Below, piece after piece: positions 44,501 through 56,365 of a stretch of DNA of 64,000 bases (position 1 is its first letter; the number at the start of each line of letters is the position of its first letter). Position numbers and translations under genes: made by a program. The notes beneath the pieces were generated by a model that worked only from the letters and a program-made list of their open reading frames with translations, made no database searches and was not told the origin of the DNA. Source of the stretch: Gemmatimonadota bacterium (lineage in GTDB: Bacteria; Gemmatimonadota; Gemmatimonadetes; Longimicrobiales; Gaopeijiaceae); the NCBI GenBank assembly GCA_034521595.1, contig JAXHMG010000003.1:1024001-1088000 (forward strand), written 5' to 3'.

Positions 44501-46156
<1,656 letters not shown>

Positions 46157-46180
46157 AGCCGCTCCATCCTCCGCAGGGAG

Positions 46181-46219
46181 AAACGGGCTCGGTCGCTTCG
46201 GCGGCCGGGCTCGTTTTTT
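46181..46219 (+). terminator. Rho-independent terminator after groEL
   Basis: AAACGGGCTCGGTCGC-TTCG-GCGGCCGGGCTCGTTTTTT. Confidence 0.88.
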
Positions 46220-46233
46220 ATTGCCTTGGTGGG

Positions 46234-46647
46234 GCGGTGCGGCCGCGGGCTCTCCCTCGGCGCTGCGCCAACGGCGGGGGGTGTCGTAGCGCTGCGTTCG
46301 TCGTGTTCTGCTCGGGGCGTCGGGTGGGGCTGCCCGGGGGAGGCGCGGTGGTCGGGCTGCGGACCCGGTGGGCCCGGGCGTTCGTGGGCGCGGGCTTCGC
46401 TTCTCCGGGAGAGCCCGCGGCCGCACCGCTTGGGCTGGGTGGTGTGCGATTTCTCGGCGCTGCGCCGACGGCGGGGGGCGTCGTAGCGCGGCGTTCGTCG
46501 TGTTCTGCAGGGGGCGTCGGGTGGGGCTGCCCGGGGGAGGCGTGGTGGTCGGGTCGACCGGGTGGGCCCGGGCGTTCGTGGGCGCGGGCTTCGCTTCTCC
46601 GGGAGAGCCCGCGGCCGCACCGCTTGGGCTGGGTGGTGTGCGATTTC
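46234..46647 (+). repeat. Two tandem copies (~195-bp period) of a structured repeat; copy 1 closed by a 23-bp perfect inverted repeat
   Basis: Units begin CTCGGCGCTGCGCC at 46256 and 46453; arms 46234-46256 and 46407-46429 (right arm again at 46601-46623). Confidence 0.92.
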
Positions 46648-46650
46648 GGC

Positions 46651-47559
46651 TCACCAAGCGGGTTCCTCCTCCGGTGACCCTGTCGGCTCGATCTGGATCG
46701 TGCAGTGACGGATGCCGAAGCGTTTCCGCAGCATCCGCTGGAGGTCGGCGAGCAGCGGACCGGGGTGTCGGTCCTTCTCCGGCTCTACATGGACCGAAAG
46801 GGAAACCATGCCCGAAGTGACGCTCCAGACGTGGAGGTCGTGGACTCCCGCGACGCCCTCCACCGCGCAGAGGGCGCTGCGGACATCCTCGACGTCGAGA
46901 TGCTCCGGTGCACCCTCCAGGAGAACGGCCACTGCTTGCCGAAGAAGGTGCCAGGACGAGCCCAAGACCAGGAAGCCGATGAGGATTGATGCCAGGGGAT
47001 CAGCCAGGCGCCACCCGGTCCACCAGATGACGCCTCCAGCTACGATGGCCCCCAGGCTCCCCAGGGTGTCGGCCAGCACGTGAAGCCAGGCGCCCTCCAT
47101 GTTGAGGCTCTCATTCCGCCCCTCCCGGAGGAGCCAGAGCCCGATGCCGTTCACCAACAGGCCGCCCATGGCGACGCCCATCATGAGGGGTCCCAGAACT
47201 TCCGGAGGATCCTGGAGGCGCCCCCACGCCTCCACGAAGATGTAGACCGCCACGGCCACCAGCGTCACGCCGTGGAGGAGCGCCGCCAGGATTTCGGCAC
47301 GGTAGTAGCCGAAGGTGCGCTCGGGGGTGGGTGGCCGTTGGGCCACCCACATGGCGAAGAGGGTGAGGGATAGGGAGCCGGCGTCGGAGAGCATGTGGCC
47401 GGCGTCGGCCAGGAGGGCCAGGGAGTTGGTGAGAACTCCGCCCACCACCTCCGCTGCCATGTAGACGATGACCAGACCCAGCGTCCACTTCAGGCGGCCG
47501 ATGCTGCGCTCCGGTCCGGCCCCCTCATGGGGTCGGTGTCCTGCATGGTCATGCGCCAT
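46651..47559 (-). CDS. czcD: Cation diffusion facilitator (CzcD/ZitB-like)
   Basis: His-rich N-terminus, SLALLADAGHMLSD, HVLADTLGS, HDLHVW, HCTIQIE. Confidence 0.93.
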   Translation of the reverse strand: MAHDHAGHRPHEGAGPERSIGRLKWTLGLVIVYMAAEVVGGVLTNSLALLADAGHMLSDAGSLSLTLFAMWVAQRPPTPERTFGYYRAEILAALLHGVTLVAVAVYIFVEAWGRLQDPPEVLGPLMMGVAMGGLLVNGIGLWLLREGRNESLNMEGAWLHVLADTLGSLGAIVAGGVIWWTGWRLADPLASILIGFLVLGSSWHLLRQAVAVLLEGAPEHLDVEDVRSALCAVEGVAGVHDLHVWSVTSGMVSLSVHVEPEKDRHPGPLLADLQRMLRKRFGIRHCTIQIEPTGSPEEEPAW

Positions 47560-47854
47560 GGTTCTCCCCGATGCGCACGGACCGCTCCACGGCGGAGACG
47601 AAGATGCCTCCGTCACCGGGATGTCCGGTGCTGGCGGTCCGGTAGAGGAGGCTCACAACCTCCTCTACCCGGTCGTCGGGCACCACCATTTCCAGCTTCA
47701 TCCGCTCTGTGAGACGGGTCACGGCCGCTCCCTTCACGTGTCCCCATCCCCGGACTTCCGAGACGGTGAGCCCCGGGATGTGGGGAAGCCCTTCAAGGGC
47801 ATCCACTACGGTGTCCAGCATGTGAGGTCGAATGAACGCCTTGATCTCCTTCAT
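47549..47854 (-). CDS. P-II family protein
   Basis: MKEIKAFIRP..GLTVSEVRGWG..TGHPGDGGIFVS; own ATG at 47854. Confidence 0.88.
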   Translation of the reverse strand: MKEIKAFIRPHMLDTVVDALEGLPHIPGLTVSEVRGWGHVKGAAVTRLTERMKLEMVVPDDRVEEVVSLLYRTASTGHPGDGGIFVSAVERSVRIGENHGA

Positions 47855-47901
47855 GGTCGGTTTCTCCTGGTCGTCACGGGTCGAAGATGAGGGCAGCCGG
47901 C

Positions 47902-50900
47902 TCACAGCTCCACCTCCTCCAGCTCGGGCTCGGCGAACCACGGATAGATGCTGGGGAGCACGACGAGGGTCAGGAGCGTCGACGTCACCAGCCCGCCGAT
48001 GACCACGGTGGCCAGGGGGCGCTGGACGTTGGAGCCGATGTCGTTGGTGAGGAGGAGCGGGAGGAGCCCCAGGGACGTCGTGAGCGCCGTCATGAGGACG
48101 GGCCGGAGCCGGAGCTCGGCGCCCCGCACGACCGCCTCCTCCATGGGCGTGCCGCGCTCCCGGAGCTGGTTGATGTAGGTCACCAGCACCACCCCGTTCA
48201 GCACGGCCACGCCGAAGACGGCGATGAAGCCCACCGCCGCCGGGACCGAGAGGTAGAGGCCCATGGCGAAGAGGGCCAAAATTCCGCCGGTAGCGGCGAA
48301 GGGAACGTTGAGAAAGATGAGGGAGGCGTAGCGCAGGCTCCCGTAGGTGGAGAAGAGCATGAAGAAGATGAGGGCCAGGGTGATGGGCACCACCACATAG
48401 AGGCGTGCCATGGCCCGCTCCTGGTTCTCGAACTGGCCTCCGTACTCCACGAAGAAGCCCGGCGGCAGGTCCACCTCCTCGGCGACGCGGGCCCGGATCT
48501 CGTCCACCACGGAGCCCATGTCGCGCCCCCGGACGTTGAGCTGCACGTAGGTCCGGCGGCTCGCCTGGTTCCGGGAGATCTGCTTCGGCCCCACGAAGGT
48601 CTCCACGTCGGCCACTTGGGATAGGGGAACGAGGGCTCCACCCGCGGTGCGGATGGGGAGCTGGCGCACTTGCTCCACTCGGGCCCGATGCTCTTCGTTC
48701 AGGCGGAGGAAGACGTCGAAGCGTCGGATGCCCTCGAAGACCTGGCCTACCGTGGCGCCTCCGACTCCAGTCTCCACCGTGCTCAGGAAGCGCGCGACCG
48801 GGACACCCAGGCGGGAGAGCTCCCGGCGATCGGGGCGGATGACGACCTGCGGCTTGCCGCCCTGTTGCTCCGCACGCACGTCGACGGCTCCCTCCACCGA
48901 CTCGGCGATGGCCTGGACCTGCTCGGCCGTGGCGGCCATGGCGTCCAGATCCTCCCCGTAGATGCTCACCACGACCTGGGCGCGCACGCCGCTCAGAAGC
49001 TCGTCGGTGCGGAGCTGGATGGGTTGGGAGAAGTTGGCGCTGACGCCGGGAAGGGTCTCCTGCAGCCGCTGGGCCATGGCCGTCTGGAGCTCCTCGTAGT
49101 CCAAATCGCCGTCCCAGTCGTCCAGGGGACGGAGATTCACCACGTTGAAGACGACGTTCACCGGCTCCGGGTCGCCCCCGACCTCGGCCCGGCCGACCCG
49201 GGCGTAGACGCTCTCCACCTCGTCGAAGTCCGAGAGCACGTCCTCGATCCGCGAGGCGTAGTCGACGGTGCTGGAAGGTTCGCTCCGGGTGGAAGGACGG
49301 CGCGAACCGCGAACGTCCCTTCCCGGAGGGTGGGCACGAACTCGGTGCCCAGGAGGGGGAAAGAGGGCCAGGCTGGCCACGAAGAGGACTACAACGGTGC
49401 CCACCACCCGTGCGCGGCCGCCTGACGGCCCACTCCGCCACGGGCTCGGAACCGGGCCTTGAACCAACGCGGGAGGCGCGGCTCTTCGTCCTTCCCGCAC
49501 GAGCGGCTGAAGTAGCTGGTGACCACCGGCGTGTAGGTGAGCGCCAGGAGGATGGCCGCCACCAGAGCGAAGGTGATGGTGAAGGCCATCGGCTCGAACA
49601 TCTTCCCCTCCACCCCTTCCAGGCTGAATAGGGGAGGAAGACGATGATGATGATGCTGGTGGCGAAGAGGACCGGACGTCCCACCTCCCGCGCCGCCTCG
49701 TCGACGATGCGGCGGACTGAGGTGCCGTCCTCCCCTCGTTCCTCCAGGAGTCGGTAGGCGTTTTCCAGAACCACGGTGCTCCCGTCCCCGATCATCCCGA
49801 TGGAGATGGCCAGCGCCCCCAGCGTCATGAGGTTGGCCGAGAGACCGGTGAGCGTCATTCCGATGAAGGCGAGGAGAAAGGCAATGGGGATCGTGGAGAC
49901 GAGAACGAGGGTGGAGCGCACGTCGCCCATGAAGAAGTAGAGCACCAGGAGCACCAGAGCGGCTCCGAAGGCCAGCGATCCCGTCACCGTGCCGATGGCA
50001 TTATCCACCAGGTCCCCCTGGAGGATGAACGGGGCCGCCTCCATCCCGGCGGGCAGAGCCTGGTTGATGGCGTCCAGCCGCTCCTCCACAGCGGTCAGGA
50101 GATCCTGGGTGTTGGTGTAGATGAGCTTGAGGATGAAGCCCCCCACGGCTTCCTCGCCGTCTGCCAGGAGCGTACCCCGGCGGATCTCGGAACCGAAGGC
50201 GACCTCAGCCACGTCCTCGACGTAGACCGGGGCCCCTCGTGCTCGTCCGACCACCACCCGCCGTATGTCGTCGAGACCCTCCTCGCCGGGGCTGAACCAG
50301 CCGTAGCCCCGCACGATATACTCCTCGCCGCCGCGCTCCAGGAAGGAAGCGCCCACGTTCTGGTTGTCGGCGCCCACGGCCTCCCGCACGTCCAGGAGGG
50401 TGAGGTCCCGGGCCAAGACCTCTTCGGCGTTCACCTCGATCTGGTACTGGCGGACGAAGCCGCCGATGGAGAGGACCCCGGTGACGCCCGGGACCGTCCG
50501 GAGCATGGGCTTGACGATCCAGTCCTGGGCAGTGCGCAGCTCGGTGAGGGAATGGTTCGCCCCCTCCCGGTTGCGCACCTCGTACATGAGGACGTTGCCC
50601 AGCCCTGTGGTGATGGGTCCGAGGCCTGGCTCGCCCAGCCCCGGCGGGATCTCCTCACGGGCCCCCTGGAGTCGCTCCATGACCAGGCGCCGGGCGAAGT
50701 AGATGTCGGTCCCGTCCTCGAAGTAGATATTGACCCGGGATAGGCCGAAAATGGAGGTGCTCTGAACCCGTTCGATCCCCGGGAGCCCGTACATAGCGAT
50801 CTCTACCGGGTAGCTGATCTGGGTCTCCACGTCCACGGGAGAGAGTCCCGGGCTCACGGTGAAGACCTGGACTAGGGTGGGCGAGACGTCGGGGAAGGAG

Positions 50901-51010
50901 TCCACAGGGGTCCGGTCCCAGGCCCAGAGCCCGAGGGTGACCAGCCCGGCGAATGCGAGAAGAACCAGGGCGCGCTTCTCCAGCGCCGTCGTGATGATGC
51001 GGTCGATCAT
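47902..51010 (-). pseudogene. czcA: CzcA/CusA heavy-metal RND permease with several frameshifts at ~49260-49640
   Basis: N-half DSFPDVSP..YFARRLVMERL..QDWIVKPMLRTVPGV; C-half AVGFIAVFGVAVLNG, RLRPVLMTA, QRPLATVVIGG in another frame. Confidence 0.88.
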
Positions 51011-51021
51011 GGCCTTTGCCC

Positions 51022-52400
51022 TCAGTGTCCGTGGGAGGCGCTGCGCGTGGCTGCGGTAGCCGCCGACATGAGGTCGAAGGCCCCGGCTACTACGGCCCGG
51101 TCACCGGGCTCCAGTCCCGAAACGATCTCTACCCATCCCTCCTGGGACTCTTCTCCCAGGCGCACCGGCACCGGACGGAACGCTCCGGGCTCGTCTGCGG
51201 GACGAACACCACGCTCCCGTCCTCGAGGGGTCTGGACGGCGTCCACCGGGACCATGGCGTAGCGTATTCTCCGTGGGCAGGTCGAGGCGCGCTGTCCCGA
51301 ACATCCCGGCTCGGAGCGACCCTTCGGGGTTGTCGATAACGGCCCGGGCGCGGAGCGTGCGGGTGGCTGGCTCCAGCTCGTAGGAGACCCAGTCGAGGGT
51401 GCCGCGGAAGGTCCGGTCCGGGATGCCTCGCACTTGGACGTTCACCGTGGAGCCCGTCTCCAGAAGGGGCGCGTCCCGCGAGAAGGCCTCCACCATGGCC
51501 CAGAGCTCCTCCACTCCGGCCACGTGGATCGGGGTTTCGTCGGGGCCCACTGTCTGGCCGGGGGAGAGATCACGGTGCTGTACCCGCCCAGCGACGGGGC
51601 TCCGGAGGGGAAAGTACGAGGGGTACCTGGCTCCCCGCCTCCACGCCCTCGATCTCCTCCAGGGTCAGGCCGTAGAGGCGGAGTGCCTCCCGGGCCGCGT
51701 TCAGTTCGGCGCGGCCCTCCCGGAATCGTGCCTCGGCCTCCAGGAGCTCGGCCTCGCTGGAGATCTCTCGCTCGTAGAGTGTCTGCTCTCGGCGGTAGGT
51801 GGTCTCGGCGGTGTGGAACCGGGCTCGGGCGGTGAGGAACCCCGACTTGGCCCGGCCCAGCTCCACGCTGCTCAGGATGGCCAGCGTGTCCCCGGCCCGC
51901 ACCCGGTCGCCCAAGTCGGCCGTGACGCGCACTACCTTGGCCTCGAGCCGAGGGCCGACGAGCGCCTTGCGGTCCGGGTTCAGGAGAAGGGTCACCGGGC
52001 GCGAGAGGGTGGAGCGAGCGCTTCCCGCCTGAAGGGCCTCGACGCGCACCCCGAAGGACTCGGCCTGCTCGGTGCCCAGGTGGATTTCCCCGAGATGGTC
52101 CTCACCTTCAGCGGCTTCGCCTTCCTGATGGTCCTCCTCTCCGACGGTCTGCCGGGGATCGGCTTCCTGAGGAGATCCAACGGCCCCGGGGCTCTCTTCG
52201 CGCTCGTCGGCCACGCCCTCGGTCGCGCCCTGCACTCCACACGCGGAGAGAAGGGGAAGGAGGAGGAGTGGACCGAGTCGGAGTGGGCTCATCGAGATGC
52301 GTCGTCGGATGGTGGTAGCGTTCTTCATCGTGTTCTCCCCGGCCCGGAGGCCGCTTCGGGAGTGGACAGTGGTGGCGTGGGTCGTGGTCGACGGGGTCAT
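51022..52400 (-). pseudogene. czcB: CzcB/CusB periplasmic adaptor, frameshifted
   Basis: Pieces in three frames: LSAC lipobox..LSSVELGRAK; ATRTLRARAVIDNPEGSLRAGMF; VEIVSGLEPGDRAV..HGH. Confidence 0.82.
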
Positions 52401-53731
52401 GGCGTCTCTCCCGGGTCCGGGGCAGGATCGCCCAGCGCCGCGCGGAGCCGGGCCCACGCTTGACGGCGGGCCAGCCAGGCGTCCCAGTACGCCAGCACGG
52501 CGTCCAGGAGCTGATCGCGGAGAAGGAGGAGTGAGGGCAGGTCGATCTTCCCAGCGCGGTAGGATTCCTCCAGAAGACCCCGGTTCTCGCGGGCAGGGGC
52601 GAGCACCGAAGCCTCCAACTCGCGAGCTTCCTTCGTGGCGGAGGTGTAGGCCTGGAGAGCGTCGCTCACCTCCGTTCGCACCCGGAGCGCGACGTCCGCT
52701 CGCAGATCCTCGCTCTGGGCCAGTGCCGCCTCCCGGGCGTCGGTCGTTCCCTGGTTCCGGTTCCACGAGGGTACCGGAGAGCCCCAATCCGATCCCGATA
52801 TCTAAATCGGCCCCGGGCCCGCCCTGCTGAACGGGGACCAGGAGGTGCAGGTTGGGGATGGCCTCCCGACGAGCGAGCCGCTCCCGGGCCCGTGCCTCGT
52901 CGGTGGCGGCTTCCGCTGCCAGGAGGTCGGGCCGGCGCGACAGGGCCACTCGCGTCAGCGAGTCCGCCTCCAGCCTTCCGGGGTCGGGAAGCGCGGGTAC
53001 CGGCTCCGGATGTGCCGGGCCGCTCGGGTCGGCCAGCTCCAGCGCGACGCGTGCCCTCGAGATCCAGCCCCAAGACCCGCTTCAAGGAGAGAAACGCCGA
53101 TGTCAGCCCCCGTCGAGCCGTCTGCACCCGGCTCCGCGCCCGGCCATGCTCGATCTGGGCCAGATTGGCCTCTAGTGCGCTCGCCCTCTCCCTCGGCGCG
53201 CTGTGTCGTCACGGCGTTACGGAGGCGCTCGTTCAGCTCGGCCATCTCTTCTGCGACCGCCACCTTCCGCTGGGCCGCGGCCGCCTCATGGAAGGCTTCG
53301 CGTACGTCGAGGAGAGTACGGCGCTCCGCGTTCTGCACGGAGGCGCGAGCCTGCCGCAGGTCGTGGTTGGCGGCGTCCTTGCGGAGCCCCCATTGGCCTG
53401 CCCATTCCAGCTCCTGGGTCACCACGGCTTCGTAGCGGTCCAGAGGGCTCTGCCCGCCGGGGACGTCGAGGCGCTCGGCCTCGAACTCGACTTCGGGGTT
53501 GAACCGGTAGACGCCCGCCTGTCGGCGCTCGCCCAGGGCGATGTCTTCTTCCCGGCGGGCTACGCCGAGTAGGAGGTTCCGCTCCAGGGCCAGGCGCTCG
53601 GCATCCTGGAGGGTGAGGGTGACCGTGTCTGTGGTCGGGGCTCCCCCCGTCGGCTCCTGGGCCCATCCCACCATGGGGATGAGACCGGAGACGACGGAGA
53701 GGAGGATCCCGAGCAAATGCGCTCGGTGCAT
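52397..53731 (-). pseudogene. czcC: CzcC/TolC outer-membrane factor, frameshifted
   Basis: LTLQDAERLALERN, QELEWAGQ; RRPDLLAA..REAIPN; YRAGKIDLPSLL in different frames. Confidence 0.82.
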
Positions 53732-53912
53732 AGGGACGCTCCTTACCCGGAGCGGAGGGCACGCGCCGCCCACCCGGAACGAGGGGGCGGCTACGGACCA
53801 CGGACGTCCAGTGTGGACGCCCGTCCGCTCAGAAGTGGATGTGGATCGGGGAAGTCAGAGGGTCCGCGGCGGCAGATCGGGGACGATCAAGCCGGTAGGC
53901 GCGGACGGAGCG

Positions 53913-54287
53913 TCAAGCTCGGGGAGGGTGGGTGAACAGCACCGGAACGTAGTTGGACGGTGTGGAGACGGCGGTGTGGACGGACGAGCCCACCTCGATC
54001 ACACCCAAGGCCGCCAGCGCGGCGGGCGGGAGCCCTGGACCGTGAACGTGGGTGCAGTGATCGGTGGAGGTCCCGTGTCGGTGATCGGGACCTTGGTCCT
54101 CCGTACCGTCGGGCTCACCCGTCTCGTGGCCGTGTTCACCCGGCTGATCCTGCCCATGGGTGGTGTGGCTGACTGCCGTCGCTGTGGTCTCGTGGTGGAC
54201 GGCGCCGTCCCGGGCCAAGCCCACGCCCACCTCCAAGACGGAGGTGTGAAACACCACGAGCATGATGACCACGAGCAAACGACGCAC
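53913..54287 (-). CDS. His-rich exported protein, CzcI/DUF2946-like, ending HPPRA
   Basis: Hydrophobic N-terminus, many His, DHCTHVH, Pro-rich C-terminus; first gene of the czc cluster. Confidence 0.65.
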   Translation of the reverse strand: MRRLLVVIMLVVFHTSVLEVGVGLARDGAVHHETTATAVSHTTHGQDQPGEHGHETGEPDGTEDQGPDHRHGTSTDHCTHVHGPGLPPAALAALGVIEVGSSVHTAVSTPSNYVPVLFTHPPRA

Positions 54288-54384
54288 GGAGAACTTCAGC
54301 TGTCGGGAAGAAGCCCACAATAACCTGACGGGTGAATCTTCAGGATTCCACTGGACGTAATAAGAGGATGGGGTTGCGGAAGGT

Positions 54385-54610
54385 TTAGCGATCCTCCAGG
54401 TGGAGAACGTTGCTCCCCACCCGGTGGGCCCGGACGGCCGTGAACTCGTCCAGCATGGCCTGCATGTTGTGATCGGCGGCCGGGTAGTCGTGTGCCCATG
54501 CTGCTCGACCGAATCCACCCCGCACGCCTCGATACCGTACGCGCGTGAACGCGAGACGACCGTCGTACGGTGGATTGGAGGTCTGCGGCGCGGCGGCCTT
54601 CGACTCCGGG
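54385..54610 (-). pseudogene. Fragment of a DUF4159-like protein
   Basis: YDGRLAFTRVRY..WAHDYPAADHN..GSNVLHLED, then lost. Confidence 0.6.
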
Positions 54611-54739
54611 GCGGACCCTCGATCCCCAGAAGCGTCATCAGCATCGGCGGACCAGTGAAGGGCGACGAGGATCGTTCCGAATCCCGCCAAGCGAGCGGTC
54701 GCTGAATCGGAGTCCATCCACGTCGATACAACCGTTCAG

Positions 54740-54962
54740 TGTGGCAGTGACGGACGATTCGGAGCGACGGTGGTGGTTCTACTCGTTGATCGGCGCCGCA
54801 GGCGGAGCTGGTGTCGGACTCGCAGCCGCCCGGTATGTGATCAACGATCCGAGCAACGCAGTTATCGAACATCCGATGCTGTTCTATGGCAGCTATGCGC
54901 TTTCGGGAGCGGGGGGAGGTGGGCTCGTGGGTTCCGCGCTCGGCATCGTGAAGACCAGATGA
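54740..54962 (+). CDS. Small glycine-zipper membrane protein or fragment (start uncertain)
   Basis: LIGAAGGAGVGLAA..GAGGGGLVGSALG. Confidence 0.4.
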
Positions 54963-55058
54963 ACGCCAGATCCGACCCGTGCGGGATTGACTTTCCAGGG
55001 AACCACGCAATGGTGCGCCTGCACCGCCGGGGAGTGGCGGAACCACGGGCGTTTTGGA

Positions 55059-55249
55059 GGGGCCGGGGGCACGCGCTCCCGGAGAAGCGAAGCCAGCGCC
55101 GAAGAACGCCCGGGCCTACCCGGTCGACACGACCACCGCGCCTCCCCCGGGCAGCCCCAGCCAACGCCCCCTGCAGAACACGACGAACGCAGCGCTACGA
55201 CGACCCCCGCCGTGGGCGCAGCGCCGAGGGAGCGCGTGCCCCCGGCCCC
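55059..55249 (-). repeat. Third, inverted copy of the structured repeat with a different 22-bp closing stem
   Basis: Core is the reverse complement of 46257-46406 with some substitutions; arms GGGGCCGGGGGCACGCGCTCCC / GGGAGCGCGTGCCCCCGGCCCC. Confidence 0.9.
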
Positions 55250-55281: not shown

Positions 55282-55512
55282 TCACCCCAGCGGCACGATC
55301 CGTACCTCGTTGTCGTTGAACAGCGGAATGAGCAGGCGGTTTCGCATGCGGTCCAGCTCGATATCGGCGGGGGCTTCCACGCCCGTCACGGTCTGCGAGA
55401 GCGTTCCTTCGCCGTCGACGCGGATGACGGACTGCTCACCCCAGCTCGACACGAGGAAGCCTCCGTCGGCCGTGGTCACGATCCCATCGAGCTGACGCTC
55501 CGATTCCGGCAT
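55282..55512 (-). pseudogene. C-terminal fragment of an SMP-30/gluconolactonase-like beta-propeller
   Basis: QLDGIV..FLVSSW..APADIELD..RLLIPLFNDNEV; no N-terminal part. Confidence 0.6.
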
Positions 55513-55576
55513 GATGTCCGTCCGCTTCCCTAAAAAAGAGCTTGACGAAATGGAAACCCGGATCCTGCATAGGTGC

Positions 55577-56365
55577 ATGCGCATTCCAAAACGCATTCGA
55601 CCGGTCCTCCGTCGCGTCGTACCGGATTCCCTGCGGACGTACCGCGGGGATCTCTGGCGACGGCGCTTGGTGGCTGCGACGGACAGACTCTGGCGGGAAA
55701 CCGGTGGCGTGGTGCAGGGTGGCCCGTTTGCCGGGATGACGTACACCCGTACCGAGTACAGTCAGCTCGGTCCGAAGCTCCTGGGCACCTACGAGCAGGA
55801 AACCCGGGAATTCGTCCGGCGGGTCATCGCGGCCGACCCGCCCTGCGTGATCAATGTGGGTGCCGCGGAAGGGTATTACGCCGTCGGTCTGCTTACACGA
55901 ACGCGGAGGATGAGGGTGAGCGCGTTCGAGAGGAACGAGGAAGGGCGAACCTTGATGCGGGAGCTCGCGGAGCTCAATGGAGTGGCAGATCGGCTCGAGA
56001 TTCACGGAGACTGCACCCCCGGAGCATTGTCCACGTGCCTGGCGGAATGGCCGGCTTCCCCCCTGCTGATCGATATCGAGGGTGGCGAGCGGCACCTGCT
56101 CGACCCGGTCGCGGTTCCCGAGCTCGCGAAGTGCGAGATCTTGGTCGAGATGCACGAGTTCCTGGCGCCCGGGGTCACGGCCCAGATTCTGGAACGATTC
56201 GAGCCCACGCACAGCGTGCGCCGCATCCCGGCGGAGGAGCGCACGGCTCGAGCGATTCCGGCCGTCGCGGGGTTGAGCGCTTCCGATCGCGTTCGGGTAG
56301 CGTTCGAACGCTCGGCTGAAGACCAGGAGTGGCTTTGGCTGGCGCCTCACCCCCCGGGCCTGTAG
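55577..56365 (+). CDS. SAM-dependent methyltransferase-like protein (FkbM-like)
   Basis: GPFAGM, LLGTYE, INVGAAEGYYA, IDIEGGE. Confidence 0.75.
   Translation: MRIPKRIRPVLRRVVPDSLRTYRGDLWRRRLVAATDRLWRETGGVVQGGPFAGMTYTRTEYSQLGPKLLGTYEQETREFVRRVIAADPPCVINVGAAEGYYAVGLLTRTRRMRVSAFERNEEGRTLMRELAELNGVADRLEIHGDCTPGALSTCLAEWPASPLLIDIEGGERHLLDPVAVPELAKCEILVEMHEFLAPGVTAQILERFEPTHSVRRIPAEERTARAIPAVAGLSASDRVRVAFERSAEDQEWLWLAPHPPGL

Follow-up and report, generated by a model that had tools for sequence, protein, structure and literature searches.

A salt-pan Gemmatimonadota bacterium carries a repeat family in which a core of ~150 nt is conserved and is enclosed by a long closing stem that stays paired although each copy has a stem sequence of its own. 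The repeat is non-coding and sits behind genes, its copies stand at loci that are syntenic between genomes, its cores cluster by genome, and the mobility enzymes searched for gave no match in the genomes that carry it. Our preferred reading, which we hold tentatively and at somewhat less than even confidence, is that these copies form a low-copy family of gene-end hairpin modules of the REP/BIME/ERIC/bcr1/BRE kind, which would act through their fold in transcripts arriving from either side and whose cores would be homogenized by gene conversion.

The window is the whole 64-kb stretch of DNA that was analyzed, and the genome that holds it (G000) comprises 3.49 Mb in three contigs with 67% G+C. 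An earlier note on the window had described a ~150-nt core in three copies, one of them inverted, and had stated that the first and third copies are closed by different yet perfect stems. Both descriptions hold, with unchanged coordinates and sequences and with stems of 23 bp (c1) and 22 bp (c3). BLAST and nhmmer searches of the whole 3.49-Mb genome found exactly four copies: c1, c2, and c3 in the window and c4 on contig C2. The features of these copies and their surroundings are as follows.

46197-46218, plus strand: intrinsic terminator of groEL (hairpin, then a T run), 16 nt before c1; groEL was assigned by Pfam.
46226-46233, plus strand: G/T-rich motif TTGGTGGG, directly 5' of the c1 left arm; similar motifs precede the left arms of other copies.
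46234-46429, plus strand: whole module c1, a 23-bp perfect stem around a 150-nt core.
46234-46256, plus strand: c1 left arm, 23 nt, private to the locus and 100% complementary to the right arms of c1 and c2.
46257-46406, plus strand: c1 core, 150 nt, A-poor (5 A).
46407-46429, plus strand: c1 right arm, which pairs with 46234-46256.
46430-46453, plus strand: 24-nt spacer, duplicated along with the core and right arm, giving direct repeats.
46454-46623, plus strand: whole of c2, the tandem copy.
46454-46600, plus strand: c2 core, with an identity of 0.92 to c1 and 0.93 to c3.
46601-46623, plus strand: c2 right arm, identical to that of c1; c2 itself lacks a left arm.
46624-46647, plus strand: second copy of the 24-nt spacer, ending 3 nt short of the convergent cation-efflux gene's stop codon.
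46651-55046, minus strand: 8.4-kb block of metal-efflux genes between converging copies (CDF, AcrB/CusA-type RND, membrane-fusion, outer-membrane factor, and DUF2946).
55059-55249, minus strand: whole module c3, a 22-bp perfect stem around a 147-nt core.
55059-55080, minus strand: c3 arm, 22 nt, the right arm in the orientation of the element; it pairs with 55228-55249.
55081-55227, minus strand: c3 core, 147 nt, inverted relative to c1.
55228-55249, minus strand: c3 arm, the left arm in the orientation of the element, 32 nt beyond the stop codon at which the minus-strand open reading frame 55282-55746 ends.
G000:C2:223033-223224: module c4, with a third, different, perfect stem of 21 bp.

Core identity among the three copies in the window is 0.88 to 0.93. 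The c2 copy reads as a tandem duplication of the c1 core, right arm, and next 24 nt, bounded by microhomology: the motif TCGGC stands at both edges of the tandem unit.

Closing-stem statistics were computed from 12 aligned copies, taken from five genomes or contigs, with a 21-pair stem and 251 cells. Pairing holds in 95.2% of these cells, and 238 are Watson-Crick; when the partner was moved by 1 to 3 columns as a control, no more than 54% of cells were paired. Fourteen of the 21 stem pairs are changed on both sides (47 cells), and none of 500 shuffles reached the closing-stem result. The stem is G+C-rich and 21 to 25 bp long depending on the copy, its outer ends are runs of G and runs of C, and complementarity ends sharply after those 21 to 25 bp. 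The only sequence common to the copies is the innermost 5 to 7 bp (CTCCC/GGGAG, usually CGCTCCC/GGGAGCG), and the outer 15 to 18 bp differ from copy to copy. The earlier proposal that shape is preserved while sequence changes is thus borne out over the 12 copies. The same is true of the remark that the arrangement is the reverse of a MITE, with private ends and a shared core. A true MITE in G000 provides the contrast; it is found at ~20 sites (e.g., C3:2347959-2348233) and has conserved terminal inverted repeats of 30 to 35 bp with 200 to 325 nt between them. A scan for perfect inverted repeats (18 bp or longer, within 450 nt) found only 48 in the genome, of which ~20 are this one classical MITE and the rest are mainly the present family and similar ones, so arms of this kind are rare in G000.

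Stepwise compensatory evolution of the arms is not demonstrated, because a hand count in the close pairs (G164a/b, M144a/M155a, and M144b/M155b) gives ~2 compensated versus ~9 uncompensated stem changes and because the variable parts of arms at syntenic loci (0.60 to 0.67 identical) are no more alike than those of unrelated arms (mean, 0.61). The dominant change of a stem pair is a swap of GC to CG. On the strand running with the upstream gene, the transition mismatches comprise nine C·A cells and one G·U cell, and in eight of the nine C·A cells the A is in the right arm. This excess of C·A is the opposite of what RNA selection on the upstream-gene strand would predict and argues against such selection; it would fit either the other strand or a templated process at the DNA level.

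A DNA-level process of this kind is the first rival to our reading, and we regard it as possible though on the whole unlikely. It supposes a palindromic element without a classical transposase, the core of which is copied between loci and the outer arms of which are rebuilt from local sequence by fold-back, template-switch synthesis, or arm-to-arm templated repair; perfect, private, Watson-Crick arms would then arise without RNA selection. Several details that are awkward for the gene-end reading are better explained in this way, including arms that are perfect yet essentially unrelated even at syntenic loci, the prevalence of GC-to-CG swaps, which are hard to reach by stepwise RNA compensation, and the near absence of G·U pairs together with the placement of A in the right arm. 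The constant arm length and the sharp ends, however, fit selection equally.

The core is ~150 nt in size and strongly strand-asymmetric in composition, with 1 to 7 A residues in each of the 14 copies, and three blocks of it (5', middle, and 3') are conserved in sequence. Since indels between copies are not multiples of three and break the frame, we reject the core as a coding sequence. Inner stems had been claimed for it in addition to the closing stem. They exist in the G000 copies but are not kept in relatives: both G051 copies have uncompensated changes that disrupt the pairing GCCCGGG/CCCGGGC, and the pairs that RNAalifold places inside the core are nearly all invariant. The covariation check that had been proposed therefore divides the structure, strongly supporting the closing stem and giving no support to the inner stems.

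We built a covariance model from seven copies and found matches in three of the seven genomes of the genus, namely, G000 (four copies), G051 (two), and G164 (three); genome G126 has two more copies that are cut by contig ends. Over 151 genomes of the organism's family, the model returned G000, G051, and one 33-bit match with a different core. The last is in a genome of another genus (G042; L127:1501-1714), where a hairpin-closed, A-poor module of ~214 nt may be a distant relative or an analogue. A pattern scan of genome contigs gave 13 stretches, of which the model confirmed only the G051 and G164 records, and a scan of metagenome contigs gave 22 stretches, among them contigs L144 and L155 with two copies each. 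Apart from these two contigs, the wider search outside the genus gave weak or chance matches only, and the remaining pattern stretches were chance matches in coding DNA. The repeat family is confined to one genus and two metagenome contigs. As the earlier note had suspected, no known family is matched by the repeat in Rfam: there were no matches in the 64-kb window at the gathering threshold, and at E values up to 10 the single match over 46150-46700 was a spurious miRNA on the groEL terminator. A full-text literature search found no description of the present repeat, nor of repeats in Gemmatimonadota.

The positions of the copies are older than the cores that they hold appear to be. By blastn, G051 is collinear with G000 up to c1, and the second G051 copy aligns with c3, so that c1 and c3 have positional counterparts in G051a and G051b and the order groEL, first copy, second copy, open reading frame is collinear in the two genomes; in G051 the gene beyond c3 comes after a G051-specific stretch of 3.5 kb. 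The c4 copy and G164c share both flanks, and a copy behind MatE is common to G000, G164, and contig L155, in which the MatE before M155b is 79% identical to that of G000, to the very C terminus. Because the groEL-to-open-reading-frame order and the MatE-flanking copies are syntenic between genomes, the loci appear to be inherited. This weighs against the idea of a mobile unit, with copies at syntenic loci rather than scattered. Core identity, in contrast, is higher within a genome (0.79 to 0.93 in G000 and 0.82 in G051) than between syntenic copies (0.62, 0.64, and 0.52 in three pairs). In a maximum-likelihood tree of cores, the G051 pair has support of 100/99 and the G164 copies have support of 86/89; genome labels require only four changes on this tree, the smallest number possible, and 0 of 200 shuffles matched this. 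Since loci are syntenic between species and yet cores cluster by genome, the cores appear to be homogenized within each genome while the arms stay private. We infer that the homogenizing process is gene conversion that ends at the dissimilar arms; the alternative is repeated re-copying of the core.

Presence and absence of modules bear on the same question. Downstream of groEL, the locus is occupied in G000, G051, and G126 but empty in G099, G177, and G164, and the MatE locus is empty in G099, G051, G126, and G147. The empty loci have no hairpin left, but their downstream genes differ too, so they are not clean empty sites. The search for empty sites that had been suggested thus shows whole modules, arms included, present or absent between species, but it yields no true empty site that can be aligned in a close relative. 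Contigs from four DNA metagenome runs were fragmentary and showed no informative junctions at the element. The presence or absence of whole modules favors the DNA-level rival, as does the observation that arms are more perfect where cores are more alike and are decaying in the older-looking copies M144b and M155a. The lack of a true empty site counts against that explanation, since derivation of an arm from its flank has no alignable example, and so do the small number of copies (three or four per genome), their conserved loci, and the lack of an enzyme candidate. Insertion into preexisting hairpins was rejected: G000 has no family of empty CTCCC...GGGAG hairpins (eight matches, four of which are the element itself), and the hairpin is absent at the element-free loci of G099, G177, G164, and G147, where the downstream context differs. 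Behind MatE in G177, a stretch at L179:2160-2300, which occupies the c4 locus, looks like a left arm and the beginning of a core in decayed form and may be a relic of a module; it lies below detection by the model at E values up to 1.

A scan of G000 for inverted repeats with spacers revealed at least two further families that likewise combine a conserved core with private closing stems.

C3:2549696-2550145: cluster of the second family, with a core of ~58 nt and private stems of 20 to 23 bp; between convergent genes, a single module is opposed by two in inverted orientation.
C3:420437-420706, C3:2022773-2022861, and C3:2716103-2716203: third family, in which private outer stems enclose a small conserved unit containing a short variable-stem hairpin.

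The same stop codon precedes the first module of the second family by 8 to 10 nt in G000, G051, and G099. This module is orthologous in the three genomes, and yet its stems are three different ones: perfect in G000 (23 bp), perfect in G051 (24 bp), and paired at 20 of 23 positions in G099. The second family in G051 also includes a tandem core and right arm, in which the orphan right arm has decayed while the paired arms are still perfect. At C3:420437, the third family has three tandem units of core and right arm behind a single left arm. Together with c1-c2, these are three independent tandem cases in which a core, a right arm, and ~24 nt are repeated behind one left arm, which speaks for the DNA-level rival. 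The G/T-rich, TGGTGGG-like motif lies directly before the left arm in several families, including the two other hairpin families of G000, and is carried by 11 of 115 inverted-repeat candidates, compared with a background of 1% per side. A reading as a chi-like motif was rejected, since leading-strand skew is general among G/T-rich 7-mers and makes such a count uninformative. With at least three families in G000, one could speculate that they belong to an undescribed class of hairpin elements, in which a polar, templated process without a transposase rebuilds the outer stem from sequence at the site each time the core is copied from one locus to another. Such a class may have flourished in a bacterial class lacking RNase III, since long perfect RNA duplexes would be left uncut there. 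We consider this broader proposal rather unlikely.

The modules start 8 to 77 nt after a stop codon and mostly run in the same direction as the preceding gene. Copies c1, G051a, and G126a are codirectional behind groEL, each after groEL's own intrinsic terminator; c3 is codirectional behind the open reading frame 55282-55746, c4, G164c, and M155b behind MatE, and M144b behind an E1 dehydrogenase gene. Three of seven loci (G164a/b, M144a, and M155a) have no codirectional preceding gene. All four pairs of the family converge (in G000, G051, L144, and L155), and the cluster of the second hairpin family does likewise; c4 and G164c are solo copies. The closing stem encloses a loop of 147 to 150 nt and no T run was found after it, so the module is not a canonical intrinsic terminator.

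If transcribed, a perfect helix of 21 to 25 bp could be a substrate for RNase III. No such enzyme was detected in G000 with three profiles (PF00636, PF14622, and TIGR02191), and PF14622 matches none of the seven genomes of the genus. In a sample of 121 high-quality Gemmatimonadota genomes, 15 have a PF14622 match, and 14 of those 15 belong to three families outside the organism's class. Within the class, eight sampled families have no match in 104 genomes, and one further family (f9) has a single match. A class-level loss of RNase III is possible from this distribution, and the lack of a detectable enzyme suggests that long perfect RNA duplexes are tolerated in the lineage. For the same reason, we reject a processing stalk from which RNase III would release the core.

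Based on these observations, the gene-end reading would run as follows. Transcripts entering from either side, as read-through or 3'-untranslated RNA, would include the module, and the Watson-Crick helix, being very stable, would act as a barrier to 3' exonucleases, to read-through, or to both. The helix would persist because the lineage has no detectable RNase III, and since it would need only to pair, the sequence of the stem could drift. Gene conversion between copies would keep cores alike within a genome and would stop at the dissimilar arms. Where transcription units converge, two modules face each other. Besides the excess of C·A mismatches and the unrelated arms at syntenic loci, further points tell against this reading. 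No promoter-like site and no T run after the stem were found, three of seven loci have no codirectional preceding gene, and groEL already has its own terminator upstream of c1. Nor does the reading account for a conserved 150-nt core inside a mere barrier hairpin, when the inner structure of that core has no covariation support.

Transcription of the opposite strand is a further reading, and we think it quite unlikely. The modules would then be a stand-alone family of small RNA genes expressed from the strand opposite the upstream gene, on which the core is C/A-rich and U-poor and the mismatches become G·U wobbles, and transcription of a pair would start in the interval between its copies and run outward. 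The nine C·A cells and one G·U cell of the plus sense would accordingly be mostly G·U on the minus sense, c1 and c2 come immediately after the stop of the cation-efflux gene on the minus strand, and the strand asymmetry of the core is found in all 14 copies. Fold z-scores on the minus sense are -6.1 and -4.4, but the closing stem, which can fold on either strand, accounts for most of this signal, and the inner structure is unsupported. Furthermore, no promoter-like sites were found at the modules, no flank is conserved on that side, and the sample of mismatches is small and comes partly from decaying copies.

The converging pairs could also be DNA sites for a protein (a recombinase, a nucleoid protein, or an insulator) that flank exchangeable cargo much as dif-like modules or integron sites do, but we judge this to be improbable. 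The pair in G000 brackets the 8.4-kb metal-efflux block, which is missing between the orthologous copies in G051, and in G051, L144, and L155 the converging copies are separated by a repeat-rich spacer of 153 to 332 nt. In addition, synteny breaks at the modules, and the three core blocks are conserved without supporting structure. Against a protein site, c4 and G164c stand alone, no recombinase or reverse transcriptase gene was found by Pfam beside any copy, and the outermost ends are not conserved. A replication terminus site is likewise rejected, with the GC-skew maximum at ~1.18 Mb and the pair at 1.07 Mb, ~100 kb apart. G000 does contain an integron-like array (C3:27900-34000; L168:1900-8000) of ~130-nt sites with ATAAC/GTTAT boxes and cassette-specific inverted repeats extending from the boxes; its sites are unrelated in sequence to the repeat, and a link between the two was rejected.

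Within the spacers, a unit of ~33 nt is repeated three times at L010:1360-1450 (G051), and a unit of 12 to 13 nt is repeated many times at L144:700-860. As for the efflux block, its RND protein has a P-II-like C-terminal domain, and its membrane-fusion and outer-membrane frames look split across the open reading frames 51101-51550, 51570-52949, and 52955-53773. Among relatives of this czc-like island, there is one CDF homologue in G164, with no element beside it.

Membership in a known mobile or RNA family is very improbable: size, intergenic position, inverted doublets, and the closing inverted repeat are superficially alike, but the termini are not conserved and, as described above, Rfam gives no match. 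The repeat is not a MITE, having no conserved terminal inverted repeats, no consistent target-site duplication (no consistent direct repeat in the flanks of seven copies), and no parent insertion sequence with the same ends, as nhmmer found only the four short copies in the whole genome. The earlier note had proposed a REP/HUH-like or IS200-605 unit and had advised looking for copies next to RAYT, IS200-605, or reverse transcriptase genes. That proposal is not supported, and no such neighbors were found: Y1/HUH transposase (PF01797) and TnpB (PF07282) have no match in any of the seven genomes of the genus, compared with PF01797 matches in 6 of 14 reference genomes run as a control. These absences count against an IS200/IS605 end and a TnpB omega RNA, and a REP/REPIN-RAYT system is rejected both for the lack of a Y1 transposase and for a palindrome that is private and present in four copies, as opposed to a short conserved palindrome in many copies. 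A retron msr-msd was rejected since no reverse transcriptase is adjacent; RVT_1 (PF00078) has no match in the four repeat-carrying genomes, and its sole match in the genus is in G099, which lacks the element. Integron attC sites were rejected for want of R'' (RYYYAAC) and R' (GTTRRRY) boxes at the outer ends.

The resemblance that remains is one of kind. Like ERIC, bcr1, and BRE repeats, the modules are multicopy, non-coding, hairpin-forming, and located at gene junctions. REP/BIME sequences have a proposed role in mRNA stabilization or termination, and the present modules resemble them and REPIN doublets in being extragenic hairpins behind genes that also occur as inverted doublets. In REPs, however, the palindrome is the conserved sequence, whereas here the palindrome is private, the loop is conserved, and no RAYT or Y1 transposase was found in the seven genomes of the genus. 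The Correia/NEMIS elements of Neisseria are 100 to 160 bp long, have conserved inverted ends, and form a long hairpin in mRNA that is cut by RNase III; the present repeat has private arms, in a genome where RNase III is undetected. A conserved core inside a long helix of free sequence also recalls the processing stalks that enclose rRNAs, but those are RNase III substrates, and G000 has no RNase III match with the three profiles.

Two described repeats come closer. The bcr1 repeat of the Bacillus cereus group (~155 bp) is described as transcribed, and its base-pair changes as compensatory, so that a double-stranded RNA structure is preserved; it has 5-bp direct repeats at its flanks, a nonconserved genomic distribution, and many copies (PMC3184786). 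Compared with bcr1 as that account presents it, the present repeat is similar in size and intergenic position but has no target duplications, and occurs in three or four copies at syntenic loci, and each of its stems is private throughout, not a variant of one shared stem. The beta-proteobacterial BRE is G+C-rich, intergenic, often tandem, and variable in copy number, with a context partly conserved between species (Hot et al. 2011, PMC3110155). As described there, BRE is ~90 bp long, highly conserved in sequence across a class, and of unknown function (PMC3110155). The present repeat is likewise G+C-rich and intergenic, has tandem copies, and has an only partly conserved context; unlike BRE as so described, it is found in one genus and two metagenome contigs and has private stems.

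Bacterial intergenic repeats are usually recognized by conserved palindromes; in this family the palindrome varies and the loop is conserved. Elements of this kind evade repeat finders that seek conserved ends, and they blur the border between a repeat and a structured RNA. The failure to detect RNase III in most of the class bears on how double-stranded RNA is handled in these bacteria. With its private stems, homogenized cores, decaying orphan arms, and a pair that brackets a metal-efflux operon, the family is a compact natural experiment that could separate selection for RNA shape from maintenance of palindromes at the DNA level.
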